From Heterodontus francisci (lineage: Eukaryota), in the NCBI RefSeq assembly GCF_036365525.1, contig NC_090399.1, positions 11,593,558-11,657,557 of the forward strand: DNA of 64,000 bases. Reading direction: 5' to 3'. Positions 651-60,913 of the stretch are shown here, piece by piece. The translations under genes were made by a program, and so were the position numbers. A model generated the notes under the pieces. The model worked only from the letters and a program-made list of their open reading frames with translations, did no database searches and was not told where the DNA came from. The first letter of the stretch is position 1. Each line of letters opens with the position of its first letter.

Positions 651-728
651 TAAACTACAATCTACGGACCTAGAGCTAGCTGGAAAGTGGGATTAGGCTG
701 AATGTGGTTGACTCTTACATGCTCTAGC

Positions 729-802: not shown

Positions 803-984
803 AGGCTGCTTGTCGGCCTGCATGGACATGACGGGCTGAATAGCCTCCTTCTGTGCTGTAAAATCGTACGACCCTGAGTAATTTCTTCCATCTTGTTGGA
901 TCTATCCCCCCACCTTTGAAAGCCTCCTTTTTGATGTGACAGCTGTTCCCTTCCCATTATGTCTCCTAATCTTCAGCCAGATGT

Positions 985-2635: not shown

Positions 2636-2769
2636 ATAGAAAAAAAATTATGATTGATGTCCATTTCCCTCCCAGTCCTGAATAGTGTTGCACTTTGGGA
2701 TGCCTTACTACCTCAAAGGTGCAATTTGCTGCTGTTTAGGGTCAAGCCATTTTGTTACCAATGAATAAA

Positions 2770-3700
2770 CTGAGAGCGGAATGGAGGGTCAGAGGGGTTG
2801 GAGGGGAGAGCAGAGGGGGTCAGAGCGGAGGAATTGGAAGGGAGAGATTGGAATGGAGGAATCAAAGGGCATGGATTAAAGGAAAACAATTGGAGGAGAG
2901 GGCTCGGCGACACGGGGTCAAAGTGAAAGGGTTATTTATTTTATTTAGAGATACAGCACTGAAACAGGCCCTTCGGCCCACCGAGTCTGTGCCCAACAAC
3001 CACCCATTTATACTAACCCTACAGTAATCCCATATTCCCTCCCACCTACCTACACTAGGGGCAATTTACAATGGCCAATGTACCTATCACCTGCAAGTCT
3101 TTGGCTGTGAGAGGAAACCGGAGCACCCGGCGGAAACCCACGCAGTCACAGGGAGAACTTGCAAACTCCACACAGGCAGTACCCAGAATCGAACCCGGGT
3201 CCCTGGAGATGTGATGCTAACCACTGCGCCACTGTGCCACCCCTTAAAGAAGCCAGATCAGAGAAAAGGGAGGGATTGGAGAAGAAGGGATTGGAGGAGA
3301 AAGGATTGATGGAGAAGGATCAAGTGTAGGGATTGGAGGAGGAGGGAAAGGAGGCAAGGGATCAGGGAAAGGGTTTGTAGCAGAAAGGGCAGAGGGAAAG
3401 GGTGAAAGAGGAAAGATCGTAGCAAAGCGAGCACGGAGCAAAAGAATCAGAGGGAAGTTGATTGGAGGAGAGGGTCAGAGGGGAGGAGCAGAAGGATGGG
3501 GTCAGTGTGGAGGGGTCAAAAAGGAAGCATTGAAGATGAAAGATCAGAGGGAAAGAAAGAGAACAGATGAATCAGTGATGTAGAATTGGAAGGAAGGGAT
3601 TGGAGGGGAGGGAGTGGGGAAGAAAGAATTAGATGCGAGGGATCAGAGAGGGATGAAAAGAGGGTTCAGAGTTACAGTGCAGAGATTGAAAGGAGGAGAT
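2770..3700 (+). repeat. Purine-rich (GA) low-complexity tract, interrupted by a SINE
   Basis: Degenerate ggagg/gattgga/gatcaga repeats with strong purine strand bias. Confidence 0.7.
2932..3243 (-). mobile_element. tRNA-derived V-SINE (HE1-like)
   Basis: Minus strand: tRNA-like head, V-domain (gtggagtttgc...gcgtgggtttcc...gggtgctccggtttcctc), CR1-like tail with TAAA repeats. Confidence 0.85.
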
Positions 3701-4124
3701 CGTAATTCTCAATAATGATTGCAGCACTGAGCCCAATCACTCAGACACAGGTATGTTGACATGTGTGCATTGTGTGTCTCAGTATGAGCTCCTGTACAAG
3801 CTGCACATCAATTAACAGGGCACAATTAACTCAATCCAGTACCACTCAGCTCGGGTGTCTCCAAGGCAGCTCCTGTACATGTACAACACACAGCAGCAAC
3901 AGCTTGTATTTATATCGTGAATTTAATGTGGAGAAAGCTCCCATGGAGATGTCTCCATTCCAATCTCTCTGATCCAATTACTCGCCTTTGATCACCATCC
4001 TTCCTCTTCCATCCTTCACTCAAACTCTCTCCTCTTCCATCCTTCCCCTCCTCCACATTTCTGAGAGGGAGCTGATCGACATCTTCAATCAGCCTCAACG
4101 GAACTGAAAGAAGCCACTTATTAT

Positions 4125-4450
4125 CATAGAATTATTGAATGATACAGCACAGAAGGAGGCCATTCGGTCCATCCTTAGTCGAGCTATCCAATTAGTCTCA
4201 CACCCACTGCTCTTCCTCCAGAGTCCTTTTCCCTTATCGTATCTAATTCCCTTTAGAAAGTTATTGTCGAATCTACTTCCACCACCATTTCAAGCAGCAA
4301 ATTCCAGATCACAACAACTCACTATGTAAAAATATGGTTCCCCATTTCTCCTCTGGTCCTTTTGCCAATTATCTTAAATCTGTGTCCTCTGGTTACTGTC
4401 CCTCCTGCCAGTGAAAACACTTCCTCCTTATTTACGCGATCAAAAACCCC
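4125..4450 (-). mobile_element. CR1 3' fragment
   Basis: Degenerate CR1 3' UTR and C-terminal sequence (cacagaaggaggccattcgg, aattccagatcacaac). Confidence 0.55.
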
Positions 4451-4664
4451 TTTAGATTTGATGGTATAAATCACCTAGTTTGCACCAAGTGTCGCTGTGG
4501 TTAGAATAACACACAGTCTGCTCCTGTTGCACATTAACTGCAAAGTTGGTCCAAAAATAAATGCCCTGAAGCATATCATTTTAAGTTAATACTGCTTTCA
4601 GTTGACTGATTTCATTTGCAAAAGTCAATATCACAAGATGAGGAAGTCCACTTGAATCCCTGTT

Positions 4665-5238
4665 AGAACATAAGAACAGAGGAAATAGGAGCAGGAGTAG
4701 GCCATTTGGCCCTTCGAGCCTGCTCTGCCATTCAATAAGGTCATGGCAGATCTTCGACCTCAACTCCACCTTCTTGCCCTATCTCCATATCTCTCAGTAA
4801 CTAAAAATCTATCAACATCTGTCTTGAATATCCTCAACAACTGACCTTCCACAGTTCTCTGGGGCAGAGAATTCCAAAGATTCAGAACCCTTTGAATGAA
4901 GAAAGTTCTCCCCATCTCACTCTGAAATGATCAACCCCTTATCCTGATACTGTGACCTGGTCTAGATTCCCCAGCTAAGGGAAACATTTTTTCAGCATCT
5001 ATCCCGTCAAGCCCCTTAATAATTTTATGTTTTAATGAGATTACCGCTCAGTTTTCTAAACTCCAGGGGATATCGGCCTAGTCCACTGAATCTCTCCTCA
5101 TAGGACAATCCCCTCATCCCAGAAACCAGTCTAGTGAACCTTTGTTGCACTCTCTCTAGGGCTATGATGCCCTTCCTTAAGTAAGGTGACCAAAACTGTC
5201 CACAGTAGCCCAGATGTGCCTCACCAATTCCCTGTATA
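4665..5238 (-). mobile_element. CR1 LINE 3' fragment
   Basis: HLGYCGQFWSPYLRK...LERVQQRFTRL...LSYEERF on minus; tail agaacataagaac. Confidence 0.85.
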
Positions 5239-5249
5239 ATTCCAGCGAG

Positions 5250-5750
5250 GGGACGCAGTTGAGAGAGTGAAGGGATATAGTTGAGAGAGTGAAGGGATGC
5301 AGTTGAGAGAGTGAGGGGACATAGTTGAGAGAGTGAAGGGATGCAGCTGAGAGTGAGGGGATGCAGTTGAGAGAGTGAGGGGCCGCAGTTGAGAGAGTGA
5401 GGGGACGCAGTTGAGAGAGTGAGGGGCCGCAGTTGAGAGAATGAAGGGACATAGCTGAGAGAGTGAGAGGACGCAGTTGAGAGAGTGAAGGGACGGTTGA
5501 GAGAGTGAGGGGATGCAGTTGAGAGAGTGAAGGGATGCAGCTGAGAGAGTGAGGGGACGCAGCTGAGAGAGTGAGGGGACGCAGTTGAGAGAGTGAGGGA
5601 ATGCAGTTGAGAGAGTGAGGGAATGCAGTTGAGAGAGTGAGGGGACGCAGTTGAGAGAGTGAAGGGACGCAGTTGAGAGAGTGAGGGGCCGCAGCTGAGA
5701 GAGTGAGGGGACGCAGCTGAGAGAGTGAGGGGACGCAGTTGAGAAGAGAC
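5250..5750. repeat. 22-bp minisatellite (GCAGTTGAGAGAGTGAGGGGAC)n, about 22 copies
   Basis: Directly visible period-22 repeat with minor variants. Confidence 0.95.
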
Positions 5751-5920
5751 AGTTTGCCTGAGTGAGAGACATTTTCCAGAGTGAATTTGGAAATTTAGTG
5801 CATGTGGGAATTCAGTGCAGAGGGGGAAGGAGTGGTTCCTTTTCCTATCTTTTTCAGCCTCTAGGTCAGTCTTCTTCGGCCTCCAGCAGTTGGTGAGTCT
5901 TCTTCCTCTGACTGCAAGGT

Positions 5921-8790
5921 AAGCTGTTCTACTCCGCAGTTTCATTTCATCTTTCGTCTCATCTGACGCATTAACAAAAAACTTTTTTTCTTCCTTTCAT
6001 GTGTTAAGGAACGCAAGCTCCAGCAGCTGATGGGGACTAATGTCCCACCAGATCCTCCCTCCGCTTCACTTCCCTCTGACCCCACCCCTTCTGATCTGAC
6101 CCCTTGCCGTGTATTCACTATACTCTCTGACCTCCCCCTCTCTGATGCTGAGCGTTCTGTACTCAGCAAAGGTCTCAGTTTTATCCCCTTACGCCCCCAC
6201 CTCAATGAATTTCGCGCTCAGCATGACGTTGAGCTCTTCTTCCGTTGCCTCCGCCTCTGGGCTCACTTCTTTGACCAGGAGTCCTCCCCCCGACCAGCAG
6301 ACCCATTCACCCGCCTCCAGCATTCTCCCGCTACCTGGACCCCTCCCCCTGGCCTCTTAGCCGCTCTTGATCTCTTCATTGAAAACTGTCGGCGAGACAT
6401 TAGTCATCTCAATTTCTCTGCCCCCCTCACTCACTCTAACCTGTCCCCCTCTGAACTTGAGGCACTCCGTTCTCTCAGGTCTAACCCCGACATGGTCATC
6501 AAACCTGCAGACAAGGGTGGTACTGTTGTCGTATGGCGTACCGACCTCTACCTTGCAGAAGCTCAACGCCAACTCACGGACACTTCTTCTTACCTCCCTC
6601 TGGACCATGACCCCACCACCGAACATCAAGCCACCGTCCAAAGGACTGTCACTGACCTCATCTCCTCTGGAGATCTTCCCTCTACAGCTTCCAACCTCAT
6701 AGTCCCACAACCCCGGACAGCCCGCTTCTACCTCCTTCCCAAAATCCACAAACGGGACTGTCCCGGCAGATCCATTGTGTCAGCCTGCTCCTGCCCCACT
6801 GAACTTATTTCTTCCTATCTAGACTCTATCTTTTCTCCGCTGGTCCAGTCTCTTCCCACCTACATCCATGACTCTTCTGATGCCCTACGTCATTTTGACA
6901 ATTTCCAGTTTCCTGGTCCCAACCGCTTCCTCTTCACTATGGACGTCCAATCACTCTACACCTCCATCCCCCACCAGGATAGTTTGAGGGCTCTCCGCTT
7001 CTTCCTGGAACAGAGGCCCAACCAGTCCCCATCCATCACCACCCCTCTGCCTGGCTGAACTTGTTCTCACATTGAACAACTTCTCCTTCAACTCCACGCA
7101 CTTCCTTCAAGTAAAAGGTGTCGCTATGGGTACCCGCATGGGTCCTAGTTATGCCTGTTTTTTTTGTGGGATATGTCGAGCATTCTTTGTTCCAGTCCTA
7201 CTCAGGCCCCCTCCCCCAACTCTTTTTCCGGTACATTGATGACTGTATCGGTGCCGTTTCCTGCTCCCGCCCCGAACTGGAAAACTTTATCAACTTTGCT
7301 TCCAATTTCCACCCTTCTCTCACCTTTACATTGTCCATCTCTGACACTTTCCTTCCCTTCCTCGACTTCTCTGTCTCCATCTCTGGGGATAGGTTGTCTA
7401 CTAATATCCATTATAAGCTCACCGACTCCCACAGCTACCTCGACTACACTTCTTCACACCCTACCTCCTGTAAGGACTCCATTCCATTCTCCCAGATTCT
7501 CCGTCTACGACGCATCTGCTCTGATGATGCTACCTTCCTTGACGGTGCTTCTGATATGACCTCCTTTTTCCTCAACCGAGGATTTCCCCCACTATGGTTG
7601 ACAGGGCCCTCAACCGTGTCCGGCCCATTCCCCGCACCTCTACCCTCACCCCTTCCCCTCCCTCCCAGAACCGTGACAAGGTTCCCCTTGTCCTCACTTT
7701 TCACCCCATCAGCCTCCATGTCCAAAGGATCATCCTCCACCATTTCCGCCACCTCCAGCGTGATGCCACTACCAGTCGCATCTTCCCCTCCCTTCCCCTG
7801 TCAGCATTCCGAAGGGATCGTTCCCTCCGTGACACCCTGGTCCACTCCTCCATTACCCCCACCACCTCGTCCCCGTCCCATGGCACCTTCCCCTGCAATC
7901 ACAGGAGGTGTAATACCTGCCCATTTACCTCCTCTCTCCTCACTATCCCAGGCCCCAAACACTCCTTTCAGGTGAAGCAGCGATTTACTTGTACTTCTTT
8001 CAATGTAGTATACTGTATTCGCTGCTCACAGTGTGGTCTCCTCTATAATGGGGAGACCAAGCGCAGACTGGGTGACCGCTTTGCAGAACATCTCCGCTCA
8101 GTCTGTAAGCAGGACCCTGAGCTTCCGGTTGCTTGCCATTTCAACACTCCCCCCTGCTCTCATGCTCACATCTCTGTCCTGGGATTGCTGCAGTGTTCCA
8201 GTGAACATCAACGCAAGCTCGAGGAACAGCATCTCATCTACCGATTAGACACACTACAGCCTGCCGGACTGAACATTGAGTTCAATAATTTCAGAGCATG
8301 ACAGCCCCCCATTTTACTTTCATTTTTAGTTATTTTTTCTTCCTTTTTTTTTACATTCTTTTTGACATTTTTTACAATTTTTTTTTGCATTTATTTCATT
8401 TCATCTTAGTTTGTTCAGTTTGCTTACCCCCTGTTTTTTTTCAGGTTTGCACTTGCTGCTGTTCAATATTCAGTGTATTAACACCTAATCTGTCCTAATG
8501 CTTTGTCTTTCAACACACCATTAACATAATGTTTGCCTTTGCTCCGTGACCTTTTGGTCAGCTATGTGGTCTGGTCCAATCTAGACCTCCTTTGTTATCT
8601 CTTGCCCCACCCCCACCTCACTTGCTTACAACCTGTGACTTTTCTAATATTTGTCAGTTCCGATGAAGCATCACTGACCCGAAACGTTAACTCTGCTTCT
8701 CTTTTCACAGATGCTGCCAGACCTGCTGAGTGGTTCCAGCATTTCTTGTTTTTATTTCAGATTTCCAGCATCCGCAGTATTTTGCTTTTA
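5921..8790 (+). mobile_element. Penelope-like element (RT plus GIY-YIG endonuclease, Neptune-type Cys linker), frameshifted
   Basis: IKPADKGG, FYLLPKIHK, MDVQSLYTSIP, GVAMG, FRYIDD; PCNHRRCNTC linker; VVYCIRC..C.LLYNGET..R..EH. Frameshifts near 7045, 7160 and 7590. Confidence 0.92.
8656..8692 (+). ncRNA. Minimal hammerhead-ribozyme-like motif in Penelope 3' region (stem II mutated)
   Basis: agtt-CCGATGA-a-gcatc/act/gaccc-GAAA-CGTT-aact; stem I is agtt/aact. Confidence 0.55.
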
Positions 8791-11635
8791 ATAAGAAGGG
8801 ATGTGGTCTCAGAAGATCATGAAGTAGAATCAGTTTGGGTGGAAATTAGGAATAGCAGGAGTCAGAAAACACTGGTGGGTGTAATTTACAGGCCCCCTCA
8901 CAATGGTTATATTATTGGACATAATATTAAATGGGAAATTATTGGAGCATATAAAATAGGTAATGTATTAATTGTGGGGTACTCTAATATGCATATAGAC
9001 TGGGACAATCAGATTGGCAACGGTCGTCTAAAAGATGAATTTGTAGAATGTTTTCATGACAGTTTCTTGGAGCAATACATTGTAGAACCAACTAGGGATA
9101 ATGCTATCTTAGATCTCGTATTGTGTAATGAAGCAGGGTTAATAAGCAATATCATAGTAAAAGATCCACTGGGAAATAGTGATCATAATACCATAGAACT
9201 TTATGTTAAGTTTGAAAATGATACATTTCAATCACAAACAAGAATCTTAAACTTAAATAAAGCCAATTACAAAAGTATGAGGGGAGAACTGGCTCAGGTT
9301 AATTTGGGTAAATAGACTGGAAGGTATGGCAGTAAACGAACGTTGGGGAACATTTAAAGAAACAATTCAAAGGGTTCAACAAAAGCACATTCCCATCAAA
9401 AAACAAAACCTCACTCAGAAAGACCCATCCATGGCTCACTCAGAAAGTTAAGGAGAGTATTTGACTAAAAGAAGTGGCTTACAAGGTTGCAAAAAAATAG
9501 TAGCAAGGCTGAGGATTGGGAGTGTTTTAGAAACCAGCAATGAGCCACCAAAAAGTTGATAAAAAGGGAACAAATAGAATTTGAGAGTAAACTAGTAGGG
9601 TAGATAAAGGGGAACCAGTAGATGTAGTTTACCCGGTTTTTCAAAAAGCATTCGATAAGGTGCCACATAAAAGATTAATAAGCAAGATAAGGGCTCATGG
9701 TGTTAGGGGTACTATATTAGCATGGGTAGAGGACTGGTGAACAGACAGGAAGCAGAGAGTGGGCATAAATGGGGCATTTTCAAGTTAGCAGGCAGTGAAT
9801 AGTGGGGTGCCACAAGGATCAGTGCTGGGGCCTCTGCTATTTACACTCTATATTAATGACTTGGATGCAGAAATAGAGAATAATGTATTTAAGTTTGCTC
9901 ATGATATGAAGCTTGGTGGAAAAGTAAGATGTAGGGAGGATGTAGAGAGGTTGCAAAGAGATATAGACAGGTTAAGTGAGTGGGCAACAAGATGGCAAAT
10001 GGAATATAATATCAGGAAGTGTGAAGTTGCTCACTTTGGTCGTAAAAATAGAAAAGCAGAATATTTTTTAAAAGGTTGAAACTGGTAAGTGTTGATGTTC
10101 AAAGAGACTTGCGGGTACTCGTACAAGGAACACACAAAGTTAACATGCAGGTGCAGCGGGCTATTAGGAAGGCAAATAGCATATTGTCCTTTATTGCAAT
10201 GGGATTGGAGTACAGGAATAAAGAAGTCTTACTAAAATTGTGCAGTGTTTTGGTGAGACTGCATCTGGGATACTGTGTGCAGTTTTGGTCTCCACATTTA
10301 AGAAAGGATTGTGTTATGACCAGGTGAGAAAGGTATCTAGGGGTCTCTTTCAGCCTTCACCTGGTCTTATTATAACAGGGTTTTAAATTTTTAAACACAC
10401 TATGTTTTGAGCTCCCCCTTGGTGAATCCTTGTTCACAGCTTTCCAATTATAAGGCAAAGAAATAAGCACGCCAGGTTTTCTTAGGTTTAAAGAAGGAAA
10501 GTGAAATTTATTAAACTTACTTAACTGTAATTTGGTTAACGCCTACGGATATACAACGTGCCCACGCTAATATGCACACACGATACACACATGCAAATAG
10601 GGACAGAAAAGTTCAGAAGAAAAATAGAGAGGTTTGAGGCAGTCTCTGAAGGGGGTTTCTTGTTACTGTGTCTGTGTTTCCAGCTCGCCGTAGAGCCTTT
10701 GATTGTAGACAGCTCTTACATTTCGTTGGGGCCCAGTATTCTTCTTAAACCTTGCTCAAGTAGGAGACTTTTGAGTTTGCATGTCTTCAATGGGTCTTCA
10801 GTTCCATGATAAAAAGTTGGGAGGCAGGCAAACAGGAGAGGGGGTTCTGCTTCAGTCCCGGAGCACACGGCTTTTTGCTCAGTTCAAAGCTCTGTGGCAA
10901 GTTCAAATTCTGCAACAGCCAGCTAGTCATGTGACTTAACTGGTCTGACCAGTCCTGGTTCTTGTGGATTGTCTTGTTCAAGCAGACCCTGGAATGTCTG
11001 CTCTACACACAATACCTAGTGATCAGAGGTCCATTGTGGATTAAACTGGAGCAGGGAATAGCCCCTTTGTCCTTTGAAGTACTGTCTGTTTATATGCTTA
11101 TGTTTCTCTCCAGCCAAATTCTCCAATTTTTTTTAAAGCAAGTTCTTTCTTCACCAACAACAGTTTAATATCAATGTTCATGGGGAAAAATTAATATTCC
11201 TTATTCTTGGCAGGTGGGTCTGCCTGACAATATACTTGCACTGGAGGCAGTCCAGCGAAGATTTACTGGATTGGTCCCTGAGATGAGGGGGTTGTCCTAT
11301 GATGAGAGGCTGAGTAAGTTGGGCCAATATTCTCTGGAGTTTAGAAGAATGAAAGGCGATCTAATTGAAACATACACAATTCTGAAAGGCCTTGATAAGG
11401 TAGAAGCTGAGAGATTGTTTCCACTGGTCAGGGAATCTAGAACACGGAGACACAGTCTCAGGATAAGGGGTCAGTCATTCAGGACTGAGATGAGGAGAAA
11501 TTATTTCACTCAAAGGGTCGTGAATCTTTGGAATCCTCTACCCTAGAGGGTTGTTAGCCATGATCATACTGAATGGCGGAACAGCCTTGATAGGCCCTAT
11601 GGTCTACTTTCGGCTCCTATTTCTTGTGTTCTTGT
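8791..11635 (+). mobile_element. Degenerate CR1 LINE ORF2 (APE endonuclease plus RT), interrupted by an LTR
   Basis: ESVWVEIRN, YRPP, PTRDNAILDLVL, LGNSDHN, SGVPQGSVLGP, LSYDERL, WNPLP. Confidence 0.85.
10312..11229 (-). mobile_element. Probable solo LTR (about 0.92 kb) inserted in CR1
   Basis: TGT...ACA termini; splits CR1 AGAAAGGAT|ATACTTGCA; AATAAA on minus near 10510. No clean TSD, and orientation is tentative. Confidence 0.65.
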
Positions 11636-11639
11636 GTCC

Positions 11640-14300
11640 AGTAAGATTTCTTTACTTTTATACTTCAATTTCTTTGTAACAACAGCTAACATACCATTTG
11701 CCTGCTAATTGCTTGCTGTACCTGGAATGTTAACTTTCTGTGATTCATAAACAAGGACATCCAGGTCCTACTGAATGCAAATATTTCCCACTCTTTCAAC
11801 ATTTAAAACATGTTCTGCTTTTTTAGTTTTCCTACCAAAGTGGATAACGTCACACTTCGTCACATTCTATTCCATCTGCCAGATTCTTGTCCACTCATCC
11901 AACCTGTCTGTATCCCACTGCAGCCTCCTTACGTCCTCCTAGAGTCATAGAGAGATACAGCACTGAAACAGGCCCTTCGGCCCACCGAGTCTGTGCTGAC
12001 TATCAACCACCCATTTATACTAATCCTACATTAATCCCATATTCCCTACCACATCCCACAATTCTCCCACCACCTACCTACACTAAGCACAATTTACAAT
12101 GGCCAATTTACCTATCAACCTGCAAGTCTTTTGGCATGTGGGAGGAAACCGGAGCACCCGGAGGAAACCCACGCAGACACAGGGAGAACTTGCAAACTCC
12201 ACACAGGCAGTACCCAGAATTGAACCCAGGTCCGCTAACCACTGCGCCGCCCCTCCTCACCATTTACTTTTTATATCGTCAGCAAACTTGGATATGTTAT
12301 ACTAGGCCTGCTCATCTAAGTCATTAATATAGATTGTAAGTAGCTGAGGCATGGGTACTGATCCACACGGTACCCCACTAGTTACGGCTCGCCAATCCAA
12401 AAATGTCCTGTTTATGCCTATTCTCAATTTTCTGTCCTTTCACCAATCCTCAATCCCTGCTAATATATTACCACTGATCTCATGAATCTTAATTTTGTGT
12501 AATGACCTCTTGTAAGGCACCTTATCAAATGCTTTTGAAAATCCAAATACACCACATTCACGAGTTCCCCCTTATCTATCCTACTAGTTACAGCCTCAGC
12601 AAATGCAACAGATTTGTCAAACATGATTTCACTTTCATTAATCCATGATGACTCTGCTTAATTATATTTTGATTTTCTAAGTGCCCTGTTACCATGTCCC
12701 TAATAATAGTTTATAGCATTTTGCCTATTATTAATATTAGGCTTACTGGTCTATCAGTCCCTGATTTCTCTTTTCCTCCTTTATTAAATAGCAGGGTTAT
12801 GTTTTCTACCCTCAAATCCTTGGGAACTGTTCTGGAATCTAAGGAATTCTGGAAGATCAATGCTAATACATCCACTATCATTGCAGCCTCCTCTTTTAAA
12901 ATTCTAGGATGCAAGTCATCATGTTCAGATGATTTGTCACCACTGAGTCCCATTACTTTCTCCAGTTGCTTTACTTATACTCATTTCTTTAAAGTTTCTC
13001 ATTATTGTTAGTTGGTTCCAGAATGCTTTTGTGTCTTCTACTATAAGGGCAGATACAAAGTAATGGTTTAATGTCACCAGTCTTTGCTCCTAATTGGCCC
13101 ACATTTACTTTCTCTATTTCTTCCTATTTCAATACCTATAGAAATGTACGCAATCTGTTTTTATGTCTCGTGCTAGTCTACTCTCATTCTATTTTCTCAT
13201 TCCTTATCAATTTTTTGGTCTTCCTTTGCTGAATTGTAAAATCCTCCCAATCCTCTGGCTTACTACTCTTTTTGGCAGCATTATCAGACTCTTCTGTTGA
13301 TCTAATTCTATCTTTCACTCCTCTTGTTAGCCACAGTTGGACCACCTTTTCTATGGGTTTTTGTGCCTTAAAGGAATATGTGATTGTTGAAAATTATGTA
13401 TTAATTCTTTAAATGCTAGTCATTGCTTGTCTACTGTCATATCTTATAATGTAGTTTTCCAAACTACCTTAGCTAACTCTCCCCTCATACCTGTGTATTT
13501 TACTTTGGTTAGATTTAAGACTCTAGTTTCAGACTTAATTACTTTCAAACTCAATATAAAATTCTATTATATTATGCTCACTCTTCCTTAAAGGTCCCTT
13601 TATCACAAGGTTATGAATTCACCCCTTCTCATTGCACAATACTAGATCCAAAATAGCTGTCCCTTGGTTGGTTCCTTGACATATTGATCTAGAAAACTAA
13701 CTTTTATTCATTCCATGAACTTGTCCTCCTCATTATTACTGCAAATTTGGATTACCCAGTCTATACGAAGATTAAACTCTCCCATGAATACTTAATAACC
13801 CTTTTTACTGTGCCTCTAATATCCTGATTTATACTCAGCTGTACACTACAACTACTGTTAGGGGGCCTATAAAAAACGCCCACCAAAATTTTCTGCCTCT
13901 TGCTGTTTCTTAGCTCCACCTAAACTGATTCTGCTTCTTAATTTCTGAGCTAAGTTCCTTTCCCTCTACTTTATCCCATTCTTCATTATCAGGGCTACCC
14001 CTCCTCCTTTTCTGTTTTGATATTTCTTCTAAATGTTAAGTATTCTGGAATATTTAGTTCCCAATTTTGGTCACTTTGTAACCATGTCTCCAGAATGGCC
14101 ATTAGTTCAAACCTATTAATTTCTATCTGTGCAACTAATTCATTTAATTTTTTGTGAATGCTTCATTCCTTCATATATAACACCTTTAGCTCTGACTTTT
14201 TGCTAATTATCTCTGAAGTCATCTTAGTCATCAGTTAGTATTGTTACTCTCACTGTCCCTTCTTGACCAACTCTGCTTAATTTTATCCGAAATTCTATTC
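11640..14300 (-). mobile_element. Degenerate CR1 LINE ORF2
   Basis: DKS..DDLHPRILKE...LLFNKGGKEK..RPVSL on minus; endonuclease YRPP near 13865. Confidence 0.8.
11941..12252 (-). mobile_element. V-SINE nested in CR1
   Basis: Same family as 2932-3243. Confidence 0.85.
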
Positions 14301-14463
14301 CGTTCTACAGACTTGATATTTCCCTTGCTACCCTTTTCTGAATCCTCCCGCCCTCCCCCCCTCCACCCTGCCATGCCCCCACCTGGAATTATTTTCCATG
14401 AAAAGCTCTAAACTCAAACCAATGTGCAGAAATCTGAAACAATCATTTCATGCTGTTAAAAAA

Positions 14464-14544
14464 TTTATTAAATCCGGACCATCTGCTCAGCAGTAAATCA
14501 TATGATAAATAAATAAATACATCAATTAATAAATATATTTAAAT
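14464..14544 (-). promoter_or_regulatory. AU-rich element and polyadenylation signal, TNF copy 1
   Basis: Six AUUUA pentamers on minus (three overlapping at 14506-14518), then AATAAA at 14469-14464, about 1.5 kb after the stop codon. Confidence 0.75.
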
Positions 14545-15991
14545 AATAACTTAGATCAATCTGGAACGACCGAAACTTGACAATATTTATGCCACTGAAT
14601 GACATCTTTAAAATAGATGTTACATTTTATACAAAACACAGATTGTGGTCACTGCACCACAATTAATATCCAACAGTCAAACATTTGAGATAGAAAATCT
14701 CCCGGTGTATGGAACCAATCAGATCTTTTGCTGGGATCACTGCCTGAATAATGGCCAATGGTGACTGCAAGGCATGATGGGAATAAGACTTCTCCATGGC
14801 AGCCAACCAGGAAACAATCCCAACAATGAACCTCAGATAAGAGCAGCATACATTCGACTCAAATAAAGCAGAATTAAACCAATAATAGTTCCTTCAAATT
14901 ATTCACAGTCATGCATTTTTGGGTGGTTTTGACAGTGCTCGTAGAATATACTTTCCCTTTTTAATTGGTTAAGTGTCAATCAATCACTTTTCAGAAAGTT
15001 AACATCCTGTGAAAAGTTGACCAATCACATTGTAGAAGGGGAAAGCCAGTTGGCTGCTGGGAGATTGGTTGGCCTTCATCAGCCAACAGAAATCTCAGAG
15101 GCTTTGCATGAGCATCGCCACTGAAGATCCAAGGAGATATGAGAGATATATTATAACACAAATAGATGACAAGGCATGGGCCATACTCTTCAAGGACCAA
15201 TAACAGGTCACACAGGCTAACCAGTCTGAATATCAGACCTGATAACCCACTTGTAGCTCTTGGGATTGTCTAATTACCCTCTCCCTGAGGAGTACCAGTT
15301 TAAATAACATGAACAACATTAAATGTCAATTAAGTACGAAATAAATTAAAGGACCAGTTGCTGATAGAGTTAAATTAAATGAGAAAATTAGCTTATTTAG
15401 AGCACAGTTATCGAAAACTGTCTCTTTGCACATTTACACAATTCATCTCATCAAACATGACGAATCGTGCACAGCAGTGAATCACCTAGACCTGCTCCCA
15501 GTGTTAAAGGTATTTGGGAGAACAGAAACATCATAGGGACAGATGTAGGTCATTCAGCCCCTCCAGCCGATTCAGACTGACATGTCCAGTCTATCTGGCA
15601 GTTTAACAGTGGCTCGTGAATCCTGAGAGAGATGCATAATTCTTCAGACTTCACCAATTGCTCTCAATACAGGATTAAAGGCACAGAGAGTGAACGAGGA
15701 GAGGCACAGACTCCCTCCGATCACTAACACTCTGGACTGTGCAATCAATCTGGAGTGGCAGAGCTGAAAGTACAGTGTGATAACCCACCACACTACCCAA
15801 TTCTAAAACACCAACACATTTGATAGTTTCTGTCTCTGCAAGTGTTTAAATAAAATGAAGGAGAAATGAGTCTCTTTGTCCAATTAGTGCAGGATAGGAC
15901 AATGTGTCCTGAACAGTTTCCATTGTATTTCAATCTGAAATTCTCAATCAGTCATCATTACTGGCCAAACGCTAGAAGTGACTCAGGTTCC

Positions 15992-18003
15992 TCACAAAGC
16001 AAATATTCCAAAGAAGCTCTTTCCTTGGGCAGTGTCTACATATCTCACCAACTCCTCACTAACCCTGGAGTAGATCTGATCTCCCTCCTCAAACTCAAAT
16101 ATGGCTCCCTGATAGGAGGTCTTGTACCAGGGATCTCCGTGTTGGCGGGAATGACAGTCTGACTTGGTGGCTCTCAGTAGCAAGACTTCCTCTGGATAAC
16201 TGGGTGAGAGCTTGGCGAGCTCGTGGCTCAGATACACAGTCTTATCCTGACAGCCCCTGCTGTAGAAGACCACCTGGGTGTAGACAAAGTACCGACCAGG
16301 GGTCTTGATGACGAGACTGTTGTCTGTGAACTCCACGCCCTCGGCAAAGGTGGAGTCCGCCTCATTCTGCCAAATCACATTCTTTCCTTTGCTAGTTGGT
16401 GAAGCTGAAGAGAGAAAGAGAGAGGGAGAAACTTAAGGACGGAATAAAGACAAAGCAACAATTTGCATTTATATAGTGCCTTTCACATCCTCAGGACATC
16501 CCAAAGCACTTTACAGCCAATGAAGTACTTTTTGAAGTGTAGTCACTGTTGTAATGCAGGAAATGGGGCAACCAATTTCTCCCCTGCACTTCCCCAATAG
16601 GATTGTAGCTGTTTCTGTTCACAGATCTTAAATATTAAACAGTACAAGCTCGATACATGGGACACTGAAGGAAGCATTGCTAAATGTCCAAAAAACTGAG
16701 TGGAATTAACTGGCCTTGGCCAGACAATGAATAGATGGGATACATAAAGCAACACAACACAAAAGGGGGCCATTCAGCCCATTGTGACTGTGCTGTATCT
16801 TTGGGTGAACTATCCAATTAATCCTAATGCCCAATTCTTTCCCCAGCACCCTGTAATTTTCTGCTGTACTACAGTGGGAGGGCCTCACTTCAGGATACGG
16901 GGTTATTAATAAGGTTAAGAATGTTCTGGTACCTGTCAGGTGAGCTGCGATTCTCCCCCTCGGGTCATTTCCCACCTGTTTCATGAGATGAGGGAGACCT
17001 GGAAAATGAAAAGGCAGATTCTCAGTTACTATTGTAACACACTCAGACCCAAAACTAACTGACAGAGAGAGTGAGAGATAGTGAGAGTGAGACAGAGTGA
17101 GAGAGAATGATGGAAAGGAAGAAATGGAGACCGAGAGATAGTGAGAGAAAATGATAGAGTGTGAGACTGATACAGGCAGAAACATTTTCAGAGTGAGAGA
17201 TTCTGAAAGAGATTGATATATAGGTGTGCAGACAGTTTGATACAAAGAAAGATACGGAGCCATATTGATAGAGAATTCGATTGAGGGAACACTCACCACT
17301 GTTACTCGGGACTGTTGTCAGCGGAGAATGAATCTGCTCAGACTGTAATCTTACTTCCTGTAGAAATTAAACAAAGAAAGAGGTTAAGATGTGAAATTCA
17401 CCCTGAATAATTCAACAGGAACATCTGTACAAAGGTTCAGTCCAGTTTGTTTGCGTTGCACAGAGAGACTGGGTGTGGAGGGGAAGATTCAGACTCTGAT
17501 TCTCATCCTGCAGATTGACAACAGATAGTTTATCAGAAAACAAGTCTTGGCTAAAGCTGAATAATGTACAGGATTGGTTATTAAATGGCTGCATGTTTTC
17601 AATCCAGGCCGTACTGAGGTGTTCAGAGAGAACAGTAAAACCCAACAGCCGCATTAACTGGGTGAACACAGTTTACTGTTTCACTGCAAGGAGCAGTGAG
17701 GACAGACACTGAAATCACTTCACAGCTTTACACCACACTGAAAGCAGCCTCTCGGAGGAATGCAAGGAACAAAGGAAAGGCAACAAGACGGAACTCGATC
17801 ACTGTTTTTCAAATAAAATCACACACCTGGTTTGAAGATAAAACTCCAAGCTGACAGAGTAACAGGTAGGAAGACACAGCCAGCAAACCCAGCACAGCCA
17901 CTGCACAGAGAGACTGCCAGAAACAGCTTCTCTTCGGCTCTGACTGCCTGAGTGTAACCATTCCTCCAGTCTCAAGGTCCAGCAACTTGTTCTCACAACT
18001 CAT
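15992..18003 (-). CDS. TNF: TNF-alpha-like cytokine, copy 1; exons 18003-17827, 17357-17297, 16998-16933, 16404-15992; 238 aa
   Basis: Manual splice: 177+61+66+413=717 nt, all introns GT-AG, phases 0/1/1 as in vertebrate TNF. Exon 1 encodes a type II TM anchor (KRSCFWQSLCAVAVLGLLAVSSYLLLC). Exon 3 ends in IAAHLT. Exon 4 encodes the TNF homology domain (LVIKTPGRYFVYTQVVF, two Cys, WY..YQGAIF, FFGIFAL-stop). TNF versus lymphotoxin orthology needs a phylogeny. Confidence 0.9.
16455..16620 (-). mobile_element. Deu-domain SINE remnant in TNF intron 3, internally deleted (also 31586-31751)
   Basis: ttgcatttatatagtgcc L2-type tail plus ttttgaagtgtagtcactgttgtaatg, resembling my recollection of the AmnSINE1/SacSINE1 Deu domain. 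Confidence 0.65.
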
Positions 18004-18110
18004 GGTGTTAGATGTCAGTCGGAACTTTGTTAGTAGCAGCCTTGTGTCTGACCCAGCGCCTCTCACTCTCAGTTCTCTGAGTGCTTTGTGATTGCTGCAG
18101 CTTCACGGCA

Positions 18111-18199
18111 GCTCTTTATAAAGAGCAGAGTCACATCACTGGTAAGTGTGATGCAATGGAGTAGGAAATACCCAACCGAAAGCAGCAACGATTGGAAAA
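18111..18199 (-). promoter_or_regulatory. Proximal promoter of TNF copy 1
   Basis: TATAAA inside palindrome GCTCTTTATAAAGAGC (18111-18126), about 110 nt upstream of the ATG; TGATGCAAT C/EBP-ATF motif 18149-18157; kB-like GGGTATTTCC (minus, 18164-18173); NFAT core TGGAAAA 18193-18199. Confidence 0.7.
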
Positions 18200-18459
18200 C
18201 GGCAACTTCTCCCGAGGCCAATGTGAGAATGATGTGAGACTGGATCTGTTCAACTTTCACTGAACATAGAAATAATTCGGCAGTTTCACCAATGCTGGGG
18301 AAACTTTAACAAAACTAAAAGTGGGCACTGTACATTGTCCCATGTTCTAAATGTGCTAATGACTGTGTCATTAACAATGAGAGAGAAAATACAGAGAAAG
18401 ATAACGTTTTTACAAATGTACGGAGAGAGTGACTCGGGGATACTCTAATCGACATTAAA

Positions 18460-19285
18460 GAAATGGTAGACTTGTTAAATAAGGGAGGTAGTTTTTGGAT
18501 TAATGTAAGTAAAAAATAACGGACAAATTAATGAGACTGAAGATCGAGAAGTTTCCAGGACCTGATGGCTTTCACCACAGAAAAAGTCGATAGAAAGATA
18601 TGAAGAGAGAAAAAATAAATTACTGAGGATCTTACATTTATATAAGAAAGATGCAACCAATTCACACTCGGAAGATCCCACAAACAGCAATGATTTAAAT
18701 AACCAGACAATCTGTTTTGGTGATTTTGGTTGAGGGATGTACATTGGAAAGGATACAGGTTCACAAGGGATATATTGGCCTTGGAGGGTTGCAGCACAGA
18801 TAGACTAGAATTGCACCAGGACAATGAGGGTTAAATTACAAGGCGAGGTTGTATAAACTTGTCTTGTGTTCCCTTGAGTATATGAGATTGAGGGGTTAAG
18901 GTGGTTAAAATGTTAAAGGATTTGATCGAGTAGATGTGTAGAAATTATATACTGTGTTGGATGATCCAAGGATAAGTGAACATAATCTTAATGTTCGAGC
19001 AAGACCATGTTGAGCGAATTTCAGGAAGTGCTTTTTCACACAAAAGTTTGTAGAAATCTTGGACTCTCTCTCGCCAAATGATAGCGAATGTTGTGTCATA
19101 ATTGGAGTGTTCAAGACTGAGATGGACAGATGTTTGTTCATTCAGAATATCAAGGGATATGGAGTAAAGGCTGGTGGATCGAGGTGAGATACAGATCTGC
19201 CATGACTTAAATGAATGTTGGAACAGGCTGGAGGGTGGAACAGGCTTGAGGGGCTGAATGGCCTCACGCTGTTCATTTGTTCCTC
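18460..19285 (+). mobile_element. CR1 fragments plus Deu-SINE fragment (about 18648-18745) upstream of the promoter; repeated at about 33575-34400 and 52255-53085
   Basis: CR1 C-terminal similarity (ALRGLNYKARLYKL..SLEY.RLRG); aagatcccacaaacagcaatg...accagacaatctg Deu-like motif. Confidence 0.6.
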
Positions 19286-19789
19286 TGCTCCAGATGACTT
19301 TGACCAGGCAGTGTTACTCTACAGCTAACCTGTGTTACACTTGATGTGGAATAGTTATAAGCTGGCAAGTGTCAGGAGGACTTTATCTGCATTTAACACA
19401 CCGAGTACTTTCCTGGGATTTGGAAAGAGTTTCCAATCCAACGATGGCCTGATTCATGTCAATAAATGTATATTTCCATTAACCATCACTCCCTTCCCCA
19501 ACATCAATGTTCTTTAATCTACCTTCTAGAAATAGGGAACTACATTATTGTCAAATCCCCTTTGTCTTTTTACATGGTATACAATTCTTTCCCAGAAAGG
19601 GAAGGTGTTGTTCTGAAGCCGAACACATTCGTCATGTTAATCTTACAGAGCCAATATTTCCACTTTGTGGGGGAATCCAGAAGAAGGGAACATCATTTGA
19701 GGTTAAAGCCAGGAGTGTAATTGGGAAGCAGTTCTTTACACAAAATGTAGTTTATATATTTATATAGCTGGAGAAGCAGTTATAGTTCA

Positions 19790-20065
19790 ATGTCGAGGTT
19801 TACAATCCATTAAACTTCTTTAGCTGATACAGTGTGAATGGTTGTGATGCCATCAGGAATGGATCTCACAGGGCAAGAGTTCAAGATGTGGGCCAATGAC
19901 TGACCTGGAGGGTCACAGTCACAATTTGAGCTGGTCCTTGGGATCCACTCATGAAGCAAGGAGCCAAATCTTCCCTGGTCCATCCTCAAGTGGTTGATGA
20001 TTGTCCAAATATTCCATGGGAGGTTGAAACCTGGGACTTCACCACTCAGTTTAGTTATCAGGCTG
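19790..20065 (-). mobile_element. 3' end of an Ingi/Vingi-like LINE (longer copies at about 34900-35300 and 53595-53990)
   Basis: WRIINHLR...RCGSLLHKW...NCDC...QTITHILNSCP...WIVNLDIEL zinc-knuckle C-terminus; clade call from recall. Confidence 0.5.
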
Positions 20066-21320: not shown

Positions 21321-22384
21321 AGTGGAAGCAGTTAAAATCAGGAATGCTCAAGACGACAGAATTAGAGGAGGACAGAGATCTCGATGGTGGTCGGGCTGGA
21401 GGAGATTACAGAGTTTGGGAGGGAAAAGGCCATGGAGGGATTTGAAAACGAGGATGAGAATTTTAAAACGAGGCATTACTTACTTATACCACAGCCAATG
21501 TATGTTGGCGAGCACCTGTGGATGAGCCTGTCACTCCAGAATTGGCCTTTATCGCCACTCCAGGCGCGGCTTCACAAACCACTGACCACCTCCAGGCGCG
21601 TATCCATTGTCTCTCGAGATAAGGAGGCCCAAAAGAACATGCATGATGGTGCGAATTAGCAGATGAGAAGCAGAGTTTTGAATGATGTCAGGTTTTCGGA
21701 GGGCAGAATTGTGGGAGACCAGCTAGGAGAGCTTTGGAATAGTCAAGTCTATAGATAGCAAAGACCTGAATGAGGATTTCAGCAGCAGATGAGCTGAGGA
21801 AAGGGCAGAGTCAGGAGTTGTTACGGAGGTGGAAATAGGCGGGCAAGTTGTTGGCACAGATATGAGGTCAGGAGATCATCTTGGGGACAGAAGACAAGAG
21901 CTTCAGTTTTCTCAATATTTAATTGGAGGAAATTTCTGCTCATTCAGTCCTGGAAGTTGCACCAGCAGTCTGACAATTTTGAACTGAACAATTTTGAGAG
22001 AACTGTTAATAATATTGGCTAACATGGGAGTCAGGAGGGGAAGCTGGGTCGTCGGCAATGTAGTGGGAATAGGTCTGAGAGAGCAGGACTTGGATCTTAT
22101 GGACAAGATAATCTCAGAGTGTTTCTTTCAGTGATGGAGACAGAAGAAGCAGGGTTGGGACGGGAAAGAGGGATAAATGTGGAGAGCGGTAGAAGGAAGT
22201 GATCAGAGATGACTTTATCTGTGATAAATGGAACTGCAGTGAAATGCGAAGCTAGATTATGTGCTGAAGTCCTTGACCTTTGACCCAGAAACATAAGTGT
22301 GGCAGAGCTGACACTTAAAAGGGGTGTAGACACCCTTTATGGGTGAATCCTTGATGGTTTGACAGCGTCATTAGAGTGGATGCC

Positions 22385-22760
22385 TGAAGGTTAGATTCCA
22401 CCTTTAAATGGGGTCTCTGATGGTTAAACACTCTCTTTAGATTAGCTTTCTGATGGTTAGACTCCCTCTTTAGATGGGGGTCTCAGATGGTTAACACTCT
22501 GTTTAGATGGGTATCTCTGATGTTTAGCCACCCTCTTTAGTTGTAGCCTCTGACGGTTAGTTCCCCCTTTAGATGGGGGTCTCTGATAGTTAGACTCCCT
22601 CTTTTGATGGGAGTCTCTGATGGTTCGGCCCCCTCTTCTGATTGGGGTCTCTGACGGTTAGACCCCTCTTCTGATGGTGATCTCTGATGGTTAGCCTCCC
22701 TCTTTAGATGGTGGTCTCTGATGGTTAGAATGCCTCTTTAAATGGGGTTTCTGCTGGTTG
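22385..22760. repeat. About 34-bp minisatellite (GATGGTTAGACTCCCTCTTTAGATGGGGGTCTCT)n; paralogues at 38325-38764 plus 40334-40580, and 56725-57170
   Basis: Visible tandem periodicity; copy number differs between units. Confidence 0.9.
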
Positions 22761-23112
22761 AACTCTCTCAAGCTTTGTTGAGCACATCCTGTCCAACTAA
22801 CCCTCCTGCTCCATAGACCCCTTCCCACTAAACTGCTGAGCCCCCTATTCCACACTGGCCCTCAAATGCTCACTGGCATTGTAAATGTTTCTCTCTGGCT
22901 GAGTGGTGAATATGGAAATCCCATCCTGAGGAAATGCAGAGGGCATGTACTGAAGAGTACGGAATAAGATGCTGAGAACACTCAGGAGCAGACACACATC
23001 ACTCAGCCTTCTTGGGTAAATCTGTCCAGGAGAAGGCGAATGTTTATTTCAAACACAGTCTGGATGGGACCAAGAGACTTGATAGGAAACCACGGTAGGG
23101 AATCCATGTCTG

Positions 23113-23147: not shown

Positions 23148-23299
23148 GACCGAGAGGCTTTTTCTTAATTTAAAACTTTTCCATTAGCTGGGCTGTAAAT
23201 TGTCTCATCTTTCGAACTTTCTATTTTCTGATAAGTACTATCAGCCTTTCAAAATGGTCACCCTCTGACCGACTCCCAATCATGTTATCCAATCTACAA

Positions 23300-23530
23300 T
23301 TTCCAATCACCCAATTCTCTCTCTCATATTCTCAATCTCTTGATCCTTTCACAGATTCCTAATCGCCTGATGCTCTCTGTCAGATTCCCAGTCTCCTGAT
23401 CCTCTCTCTCATATTCCCAGTCTCCTGATCCTCTCTCTCAGATTCCCAGTCTCATGATCCTCTCTCTCAGATTCCCAGTCTCCTGATCCTCTCTCTCAGA
23501 TTCCCAATCTACTGATCCCCTTTCTCAGAG
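23300..23530. repeat. 29-bp minisatellite (GATCCTCTCTCTCAGATTCCCAGTCTCAT)n; paralogues at about 41105-41330 and 57700-57925
   Basis: Period 29 (gat at 23398 and 23427). Confidence 0.9.
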
Positions 23531-26700: not shown

Positions 26701-29325
26701 TTATAATATTGTCAAGACATGGAGTAAGCCTGAGGATTGGAAGAGTTTAAGATGCCAGCAACAGGCAATCAAAATCTTGATGAAGAGTGAGAAAGTAGAA
26801 GATGACTAGCCAGAAATATAAAACCAAATTGTCAGAGCTTCTACTTCATGTAAGAAGGAAGAGAATAGCGAAAGTAAATGTGGGCCCCTTAGAGGCTGAG
26901 ACAGGAGAAATTATAATGGGGGGCAAGAAAATGGCAGAGACGTTAAATAAATAATTTGGGCCCTTCTTGACAGTGAAAGATCCAAAAAAAATCAGACATA
27001 GTGGGGAACCAAATGTCTAATGAGAAGACAGAAATTAAAGTAATCAGTATTAGTAAAGAAAAAGTACTGGAGAAATTAATGGGACTGAAAGTCAACAAAT
27101 CCCAGGACCTGACAGCTTACATCCTAGTTCTAAATGAGGTGACTGCAGAGATAGTGGACTGATTGTGTTGGCACTGCTTGTGATCGCATCCAGAATTCCT
27201 TAAATTCTGTAACGTTCCCAGCAGATGGAAAGGTAGCAAATGTAACATCACTATTTAAAAGAAAGGAGGGAGAGAGGAAATAGGGAACTACAGGCCTGTT
27301 AGCCCAACATCAGTCGTCAGGAAACTGTTGGAATCTATTATTAGGGAAGTGGTAACAGAAAATCATAATACAATTAGACAGTGTCAACAATGTTTCATGA
27401 AAGGGAAATAGTGTTTGAAAAATCTGTTCGATATTTTTGACGATGCAACTAGTAAGGCAGCTAAGGGAGAACCAGTGGATGTAGTTAGATTATCAACAGG
27501 TAATTGGATAAGGTGCCACATGAAATGATCTTGTACACGGTAAGGTGTCTTGGTATTGGGGGGTAATATTTTAGGAGGGATGGAGGATCAGTGAAAGGAC
27601 AATAAACAGAGTCAGAATAAACTGGTTATTTTCACGTTGGTGGCGTGCTACTCGTGGAGTGCCACAAACCAGGAAAACCAGTTAACAATACAATACACCC
27701 GTTAGTCACAAGTACATTACCGAGAGTTATACGTATGCAGTGAGCGATCGCCTCCCATTGATCATTCTCTTCAGCAACTAGCCAAGTTTCTTGACTTAAG
27801 CACCAACTCACTAGTTACAATGATTTTTATACCTTTCTTTCGAAGGTGGGTGTGTCATTTCATTAATAACATCATACTGTACTGTCAAAGCCCATCTTCA
27901 GACCATGAGGCATCTAATTCTTTGTTTAAACTACAATATCAGAAACTTCCTTGATGATGTGTATATGTTTTCACCTTCCGTCAGTAATTTCATCACCCCT
28001 CATGGATGTTGCAGAAGCCTTCAAGATCTTTATTAATAAACACAATAGCAGCTTCTTTTCCTGGTCAGAAACACATTTTAAAATCAAACAAATCAAATCA
28101 GACAATTAAACAATCCAAGTCCCTTAAATGACTGACTTCTTACAAACTGCTGCTTGGAGAATTTCTACTTTCTCTGCATTTCAAAAGAAGACAATCTCTG
28201 ATGTCATCAACCAATGCCAATTTGTGTCACTCTTGCAGCTTTTCAAAACACTTTGGACCACTTTGGCAGCTGAATTAGCATTTTAAAATGATGTGAAGTC
28301 TTTTATTTCATCTTTTCAGACAACATGTCCCCCATGACCTCCATGTTTTTGCATACGTGAAGATTCTCTAAAGCTCTAACTTAGCATCAAAGTGAAACAT
28401 AGCTTTGAAGTATGTCTGGTTATTGTTTGTGACTCGATTTTTCAATTTTCTGTTTTTTTTCTAAACATTCCACAGCCTTAAACTGTTTTTTCACCAGTGA
28501 TTATTTTTATCTGCAATGAAAACAGCTTGCGGCAGTTTACAGGTTACTTTAGCTCAAAAAGTGCTTTTGACCTTTGCAATGCATGCTGCTCAGATTCGGT
28601 CAGTATTTTATGCACCTGGAAGCAGCATAGCTTCCTGCATTTCATTTAAACACTCGATGTTCCTGGGTTGGATCGCCTTGCAATTCTCAACCACAAATTT
28701 CAATTAAAATAATATTACAGTGCCATTGCACAAAAAAGTTAAACGCAGCTACAACAATCAATTATGAAGGCAAATGGTATGTTTGCCTTTATTGCAAGGG
28801 GTTTGAAGTGCAAGAGTAATCTTGTTGCAATTATAGAGGGCTCTGGTGAGACAACCCCTGGTCTCTATACCTAAGGAAAGATATATGTGCCTTTGAGGCA
28901 ATACAGTGAAGTTTCACTAGATTGGTTCCTGGAATGAGAGAGCTGTCCTTTGTGGAGAGCTGAGAAGAATGACACATCATCTCATTGAAACATATGAGAT
29001 TCTGAGCAGTTGACAGGATAGTTGCTGGCTGGGGAATCGACAACTAGAAGGCATAATCTCGGGATAAGAGGTTTGACCATTTTGGACAAAGATGAGGAGG
29101 GTTGAGAATCTCGGAAATTCTCTGCCCCAGAGTGTCCTAAATTCTCAGGTGTTGACTGTATTCAAGGCTGCGATCCATTGATCTTTTTATCTCTAAGGGA
29201 ATAAAGAGGTACGGGAATTGAGTGGGAAAGTGATGTTGAAGCAGCGGATCAGTCATGATCTTACTGAGTGACAAAGCAGGCTCGAGGACTGGTAGGGCTT
29301 TCTGCTGCTCCTATTGCTTATGTTA
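23770..29325 (+). mobile_element. Old near-full-length CR1 LINE, interrupted by an LTR (24432-25415) and an unidentified segment (27665-28740); paralogues at 41575-47880 and from 58170
   Basis: ORF1 Cys motif HICVKC and esterase motif HVGTNDIG, then degenerate endonuclease/RT and a CR1 tail. Confidence 0.75.
24432..25415 (+). mobile_element. Collapsed LTR retroelement, unit 1: LTR 24432-25327, tRNA-Pro-like PBS 25335-25352, second LTR end at 25415
   Basis: TGTCATGA...TCGTAACA termini; PBS TGGGGGCTCACTCGAGAT; TSD GGTTA/GGTAA; splits CR1 ORF1. Confidence 0.75.
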
Positions 29326-60881: not shown

Positions 60882-60913
60882 GGTAATAATCTCTGTATTA
60901 ATACCTAAGTCAT

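Follow-up and report, generated by a model that had tools for sequence, protein, structure and literature searches.

The TNF genes of the 64-kb window (the whole stretch of horn shark, Heterodontus francisci, DNA analysed here) probably belong to an old tandem TNFSF1/2 array under patchy concerted evolution, in which every copy is a mosaic. We regard this as genuine mosaic concerted evolution, a textbook process that we have not found described for the shark TNF cluster.

Gene content of the array

Self-comparison of the window resolved three tandem units, starting at 14376, 29438 and 47996, each consisting of one four-exon minus-strand gene of 238 codons with a TNF domain; no genes other than TNF copies were found in the window. 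In all three copies the 717-nt coding sequence has an open frame and GT/AG at every intron. Splice-site and translation checks place exon 4 of copy 1, with the TNF homology domain and stop codon, at 15992–16404 (minus strand, as are the other exons), exon 3 at 16933–16998 (GT/AG, its spliced junction appearing as a loose contig end at 16407 in runs X5 and X8), exon 2, of a short (20-aa) stalk type with the same peptide in all three copies, at 17297–17357, and exon 1, encoding the cytoplasmic tail and hydrophobic membrane segment, at 17827–18003, with a TATA box at 18115–18120. The coding spans of copies 2 and 3, also 238 aa and on the minus strand, are 31123–33134 and 49673–51813. Pfam PF00229 (TNF) matched the exon-4 equivalent of copy 3 with an E-value of 3e-32, the best PDB matches were TNF (1e-24) and LT-alpha (2e-18), and the translation includes an N-terminal hydrophobic segment. 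The genes are thus members of TNFSF1/2 (the TNF/LT-alpha group) with a TNF homology domain closest to TNF, and relatives have been named both TNF-like and lymphotoxin alpha-c1 to c4.

The copy 1 protein is XP_067865048.1, that of copy 3 is identical to XP_067865270.1, and copy 2 matches XP_067865269.1, a 154-aa partial model (all Heterodontus francisci). One 74.5-Mb record carries annotations for seven such proteins, and the window holds three of at least seven; the four other annotated copies lie outside it, and the comparison of units covers three copies. The most divergent 238-aa copy is XP_067865272.1, with 10–13 differences vs 5–8 among the others. Late in its TNF domain (exon 4, 16100–16200 region) copy 1 carries four private residues relative to copy 3, D184, D192, L220 and R222, two of which are changes to aspartate. 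The homology of unit 3 gives out at 60913, shortly ahead of a young LINE, so the array probably extends further right; this LINE, with a 516-aa endonuclease/RT frame, breaks the unit 3 spacer at 61063–63531.

Divergence strata along copy 1

Counting gap-free columns and leaving two large indels aside (the alignment uses four copy-2/3 columns twice, where they border a 74-nt gap), substitutions private to copy 1 amounted to 93/545 at 14376–15010 vs 56/3091 at 15011–18130, a contrast reached in 0 of 200 permutations. The best single change-point falls at 15010 (2-log-unit support 14992–15022) and is the likely left border of the homogenised block. BIC prefers two steps, at 15010 and 15773, delimiting segments with 93/545, 33/740 and 23/2351 private substitutions, or 17% left of ~15010, 4.5% up to ~15770 and 1% beyond. 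The first segment (14376–15010, minus strand; copy 1–copy 2 Jukes–Cantor (JC) distance 0.21) is an old paralog-specific stratum comprising the distal 3′ UTR and some 60 nt past the predicted cleavage site, and at 14376 homology to copies 2 and 3 stops. The second, a middle UTR stratum (15011–15773, minus strand), differs between copies 1 and 2 by about 7%, near the 4–7.5% of the spacers, and includes a 21-nt segment (~15089–15109) missing from copies 2 and 3. In run X8, record 27 (15016–15675) represents an expressed paralog located beyond the window, with deletions of 16 nt and 13 nt in this middle UTR.

A preliminary description of this DNA had pictured copy 1 as an old divergent distal UTR on a homogenised gene body. 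Its claims that the distal UTR departs much further from copies 2 and 3 than the gene body does, and that homogenisation ends inside the 3′ UTR, are borne out by these counts and by the support interval of the change-point. Uniform divergence along the gene, which it had named as fatal to its account, was not observed, the divergence falling into three strata. Its boundary at 15110 lies about 100 nt from the main step at ~15010 and misses the second step at 15773, and its single breakpoint gives way to two steps and a patchwork of tracts. The distal region, which it called loosely aligned, is collinear across copies with 17–18% substitutions once the two large indels are set aside. The close match it saw right of 15110 holds as low divergence but is uneven by pair, with 80 (copies 1–2), 134 (copies 1–3) and 107 (copies 2–3) differences per 3012 columns.

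Beyond the border, the left flank of copy 1 (1–14375) showed no homology to the flank of copy 2 other than repeat-family matches of 62–77% on both strands; apparent collinear matches between these flanks were rejected as LINE fragments.

Mosaic pattern along the units

The relationship among the copies was followed over 397 variable columns at 14376–20060 using a run test that assumes exchangeable sites. The longest runs shared by a pair were 18 sites for copies 2 and 3 (14435–14554), 17 for copies 1 and 2 (17140–17279) and 12 for copies 1 and 3 (19651–19766), each unmatched in 2000 permutations. This indicates that the closest pair switches along the unit, as patchy conversion would produce. 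A recently homogenised copy 1–copy 2 tract covers introns 3 and 2 (16405–17296), with 6/820 differences between these copies and 49/820 for copy 3. Intron 3 of copy 3 also contains an insertion of ~122 nt found in no other copy (50260–50381), and over the ~900 nt around it copy 3 is 5–8% diverged and copies 1 and 2 are 0.7% apart. Similarly, the 3′ flank and distal UTR of copy 2 (28645–30160) were recently homogenised with copy 3, with 12 mismatches in 794 columns of flank (1.5%) and 11/525 in the distal UTR (2.1%); these two copies still homogenise their distal UTRs with each other. Three layers may therefore be distinguished by their divergence, an old paralog split (~20%), unit amplification (~5–7%) and continuing short exchanges (0–2%). 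Conversion templated by mRNA was considered and rejected, as homogenisation extends to introns, promoter and 10 kb of spacer.

Insertions and deletions in the distal UTR

One of the two large indels is an insertion of 146 nt in copy 2 (29816–29961) and 147 nt in copy 3 (48366–48512), located between two copies of AATGAAC (29809/29962 and 48359/48513). It is a CR1-like LINE 3′ end on the plus strand, antisense to the mRNA. A 5′-truncated 3′ end, a short repeat tail, a 7-nt target-site duplication (TSD) and an empty site together mark it as a target-primed LINE insertion. Its local score to the end of an RT-bearing element at 38765–40333 was 69, vs a maximum of 41 among 200 shuffled sequences. 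Copy 1, as the preliminary description had observed, is without the insertion and has a single AATGAAC at 14825–14831, an empty target site bridged without insertion by contig records 2, 3, 4, 9 and 17. From the TSD, this empty site and the likeness to the RT-bearing LINE end it follows that the insertion is, on sequence grounds, the derived state of copies 2 and 3, not of copy 1.

The other is a segment of ~74 nt (14691–14764, delimited by alignment anchors) missing from copies 2 and 3. Described earlier as private to copy 1 at about 14680–14760, it is indeed confined to this copy within the window but is common to another paralog and a second species: contig records 3, 9 and 17 have it, on a DNA contig of the same organism (24 differences in 219 places) and on second-species contigs. 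The segment is probably ancestral and its loss derived in copies 2 and 3.

Among 11 unit-specific indels scanned for TSDs, one had a convincing repeat, of 14 nt. The end of a long-ORF retroelement at 6030–8764 matches a unit-2-specific insertion (46435–47116) at 93%, and a 14-nt target duplication flanks that insertion. Minisatellites of 33 bp and 29 bp occur in each spacer with varying copy number (22327–22769, 23263–23529, 29324–29404); immediately beyond the 3′ ends of copies 2 and 3 there is also a short stretch of the 29-bp repeat.

Age of the copy-1 UTR

Parts of the stretch are held by 12 of 17 listed sequencing runs, from two organisms: organism A, the horn shark (its DNA run possibly from the window's own sample), and organism B, a second species represented by one sample in two runs (X5, X7). 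Contigs of four runs were compared with 14200–16460 at 80% likeness, and the results below hold among the contigs listed. Runs X5 and X8 contain spliced RNA, since the loose end at 16407 reads exon-3 letters.

Copy-1-type contigs of the second species differ from copy 1 by 17 letters and 11 gap letters at 14635–15112, and by 8 letters with no gap letters at 14594–14866; for a copy-2-type contig, 64 and 34 differences, respectively, would be expected, along with large gaps. In both, the 74-nt segment is present and the target site empty; the longer contig also reads across 15010. Other UTR types exist in this species too, in contigs 13–16% unlike copy 1 at 14909–15046. The JC distance between the species for the copy-1-type UTR is 0.030 and 0.036, so that at ~3% it has diverged about one sixth as far as the distal UTRs of copies 1 and 2 (0.21 ± 0.04), and introns 2–3 of copies 1 and 2 are 0.007 apart. 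Assuming equal rates, the distal UTR split would be about six times older than the species split, and the 0.7% between the introns, smaller than the ~3% between species, suggests that part of the gene body was exchanged after the species separated. In the horn shark itself, the DNA run yielded near-exact copy 1 contigs and a copy-2-type joint, together with two contigs that have the empty site, record 3 (11% diverged, with the 74-nt piece) and record 4 (16% diverged). The horn-shark genome therefore has at least four distal-UTR types, and the old tail is not peculiar to copy 1.

These distances agree with the earlier claim that the duplication is much older than coding identity suggests, as do exon-2 types that cross orders (see below); a recently derived copy-1 UTR, which would have spoken against that claim, was not what the second species showed. 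They also bear on a recent triplication followed by fast divergence of the copy 1 distal UTR. Some copy 1 letters are indeed recent, since at 14807 and 14991 all compared contigs of the second species have the letter of copies 2 and 3, and near 14862 copy 1 is without 11 nt of copies 2 and 3, the second-species copy-1-type contig having 11 extra letters. Nevertheless, the ~97% identity of this UTR type in the second species largely refutes a recent triplication, from which the switching of pairs along the units would also be unexpected, leaving it very improbable. Still less credible, to the point of being negligible, is an assembly chimaera in which the UTR of an unrelated paralog was joined to a collapsed unit: near-identical tandem units are hard to assemble, and no listed contig spans the whole stretch, but record 9, from the other species, bridges 15010 by more than 100 letters on each side with copy 1 features on both, and the units differ by 4–7% and by their own insertions.

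Exon-wise trees across sharks

Of 75 proteins fetched, 53 were aligned and 33 entered a tree of exons 1+4, from which partial or mis-modelled rows, some near-duplicates and distant paralog groups were left out. Seven of the nine listed multi-row groups form single-species clades in this tree. The exceptions are Carcharodon and Cetorhinus, whose paralogs c3 and c4 pair across species, so that homogenisation is not equally strong in all sharks. Exon 2 occurs in two forms, long (26–27 aa) and short (15–21 aa). Horn-shark XP_067865046.1 matches copy 1 at 57/59 residues in exon 1 and 129/135 in exon 4 vs 10/20 in exon 2, which scores best against the long forms of sawshark and white shark, and Chiloscyllium repeats the pattern (58/59, 131/136, and 2/19 for exon 2). 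Horn, white, bamboo and saw sharks have both stalk forms, with species-like exons 1 and 4 (proteins P0002 vs P0051 and relatives). No hidden long-type exon 2 was found in the window, the best matches being the short exon 2 itself.

In a test of 18 long and short representatives (automatic gene models, groups named after inspection of the alignment) exon 2, whose tree has 27 columns and one starred branch, rejected a horn-shark clade (p-AU 0.0015) and a lamniform clade (0.0004), but not an orectolobiform clade (0.087), and exons 1+4 rejected a clade of long forms (p-AU 5e-10). The long/short split would make exon 2 another and older divergence island of this array. Sorting of exon 2 by paralog type across orders, and of exons 1+4 mostly by species, is good but not final evidence that the shark TNF array was in place before the major shark groups split. 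Two hallmarks of concerted evolution are accordingly present: paralogs are closer to each other than to cross-species relatives (a horn-shark clade for exons 1+4 with support 100/98, and introns at 0.7% vs ~3%), and different segments give different trees, as seen in the pair-switching runs and in exon 2 vs exons 1+4.

Direction of exchange

Patchy concerted evolution could have shaped the window as follows. Two paralogs, whose distal 3′ UTRs are now ~20% apart, would have recombined inside the UTR near 15010, setting the left border of a homogenised block of 15–18.5-kb units, each made of a gene body, its upstream spacer and the distal UTR of the next copy, with members now 4–7% apart. Unequal crossing-over would have preceded the split of the two species, and later short conversion tracts may have swapped gene-body segments between changing pairs, which is how we read the observed mosaic. 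Its ~18% divergence, the large indels that break it up and the non-homologous LINE DNA on its border would have kept the copy 1 distal UTR out of these exchanges, although shielding by the indels is a correlation here.

Which copy acted as donor is not readable from the window, which is symmetric on direction. Under an expansion route, an unequal crossover between old neighbouring genes A and B (letters for genes, not organisms) in the UTR would give an A-tail/A-body gene followed by B-tail/A-body repeats, leaving copy 1 intact and copies 2 and 3 chimaeric. Under a contraction route, A would cross with an already amplified B block to give an A-tail/B-body gene, making copy 1 the chimaera. A single expansion crossover is slightly simpler, involving fewer events, and we favour it tentatively, at somewhat less than an even chance; that there was no single direction at all is rather unlikely. 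XP_067865272.1 might conceivably be what is left of B.

The preliminary description had instead taken copy 1 as the array-edge gene whose body and promoter were overwritten by a unit of the copy-2/3 type up to the UTR, a sub-case of patchy concerted evolution that is possible but doubtful. Copy 1 is the leftmost unit in the window, and no TNF exon was found in the 14 kb to its left (1–14375). All three copies share the short exon 2, and lamniform sharks have two short-exon-2 paralogs, c3 and c4, one of which could be the overwritten lineage. However, an overwrite needs separate amplification and a contraction crossover, and one expansion crossover gives the same window; the dated structural change, the insertion with its TSD, sits in copies 2 and 3, where the 74-nt loss is probably derived as well. 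Nor is copy 1 special, given four more copies outside the window among the seven annotated on one record, and at least two further insertion-free distal-UTR types in the genome; accession order hints that two copies precede it. The second species, the one outgroup whose UTRs were compared (one sample, two runs), already has the copy 1 arrangement.

Regulatory motifs and selection

The stop codon of copy 1 is at 15992 and the sole AATAAA between 14300 and 16000, a putative poly(A) signal found by motif scan, lies at 14464–14469 (minus strand; equivalents at 29528 and 48086), predicting a UTR of ~1550 nt. A variant, ATTAAA, at 14960–14965 (minus strand) is another putative signal, kept in all three copies (30109, 48660) and close (~50 nt) to the main divergence step; transcripts that used it would lack the AU-rich element (ARE) described below and all of the divergent tail. 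Contig depth falls at ~14960 in RNA-like runs, and this was rejected as a transcript end because the DNA run shows the same fall and contigs cannot show ends. The gap in contig cover of X5 and X7 at 14352–14579 was likewise given no weight, none of the RNA-like runs being recorded as RNA. An invariant 6-bp hairpin with a CAU triloop lies 87 nt after the stop (15890–15905), with equivalents in copies 2 and 3, and a second hairpin with a UAU loop follows ~760 nt after the stop; we take this shape to resemble the consensus of Roquin-bound decay elements. Folding of five UTR pieces gave z-scores from -1.53 to +0.62, none notable, the first hairpin being unremarkable, and an Rfam search returned two matches, both far below the gathering score.

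A putative ARE cluster at 14500–14550 (minus strand) contains UAUUUAU, a motif as in PMC7658709, four times in copy 1 (three overlapping), three in copy 2 and four in copy 3. A regulatory difference between the UTRs of the copies is possible, and selection might maintain the differences among distal UTRs and among exon-2 stalks, so that cytokines of almost the same sequence differ in mRNA decay or shedding. AREs whose arrangement differs between copies within the divergent stratum, both tail types in runs with spliced RNA, the persistence of long and short exon 2 in several orders, and divergence peaks that mark selection in opsins (in the available text of PMC3924837) are all consistent with this. 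Against it, no peak of conservation or selection was found in the distal stratum, where divergence is even, including the ARE (10/77) and the part past the cleavage site (14/70), and the longest stretch without change is unremarkable (696/2000 permutations). The position at the end of homology and the adjoining indels explain the divergence neutrally, and a similar divergence island occurs in the introns of copy 3, so that selection appears improbable.

Comparison with known systems

In sharks, eight TNFSF1/2 genes have been reported in Rhincodon, six of them in tandem, with the same tandem in Carcharodon (Marin 2020, PMC7674686; Marin 2025, PMC11762692). As far as the available text of these reports goes, they invoke independent tandem duplications or lineage expansions, whereas the exon-wise trees here suggest old paralogs whose sequences were homogenised within lineages; 'gene conversion' has no match in the text of PMC7674686, nor have 'conversion' or 'concerted' in that of PMC11762692. 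No literature on conversion or UTR mosaics in shark TNF genes was found in a search covering few subscription papers. TNF-domain trees of shark TNFSF1/2 would then read old homogenised paralogs as recent expansions, affecting gene counts and the question of TNF vs lymphotoxin-alpha at the base of jawed vertebrates; exon 2 and the distal UTRs, not the TNF domain, would be the markers of orthology and the sole way to separate copies in expression studies. It is conceivable, though quite unlikely as a whole, that the array dates back at least to the separation of the major shark groups and is not a set of recent lineage-specific expansions, that recurrent conversion holds the membrane anchor and the receptor-binding domain uniform in any one species, and that the exon-2 stalk (shedding) and ARE-bearing distal 3′ UTR (mRNA half-life), setting dose and not specificity, are kept paralog-specific by selection and reshuffled by crossovers. 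A similar debate on concerted vs birth–death evolution concerns type I interferons (PMC6640115, in the part available).

The shark UTR resembles that of mammalian TNF, with its ARE and CDE as outlined in PMC7658709, in its UAUUUAU clusters and in the 6-bp hairpin found near the stop in all three copies, whose triloop is pyrimidine-purine-pyrimidine; unlike the mammalian arrangement, the putative shark ARE lies ~1450 nt from the stop. That concerted evolution can be mosaic and can be terminated by insertions is established, and transposable element insertions and large indels disrupt conversion (PMC3924837; for the first point also bioRxiv 10.1101/2025.10.29.685298, both as far as their available text goes). 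As in the Arabidopsis halleri HMA4 triplet (bioRxiv 10.1101/2025.10.29.685298) and the red/green opsins (PMC3924837), the shark genes are tandem copies with within-gene variation in conversion and divergence islands, where conversion would be ended by transposable element insertions and large indels. Unlike the islands outlined for those systems, the shark islands are the distal 3′ UTR and, in other paralogs, the exon-2 stalk, with exon-2 lineages that span orders and no selected site identified.
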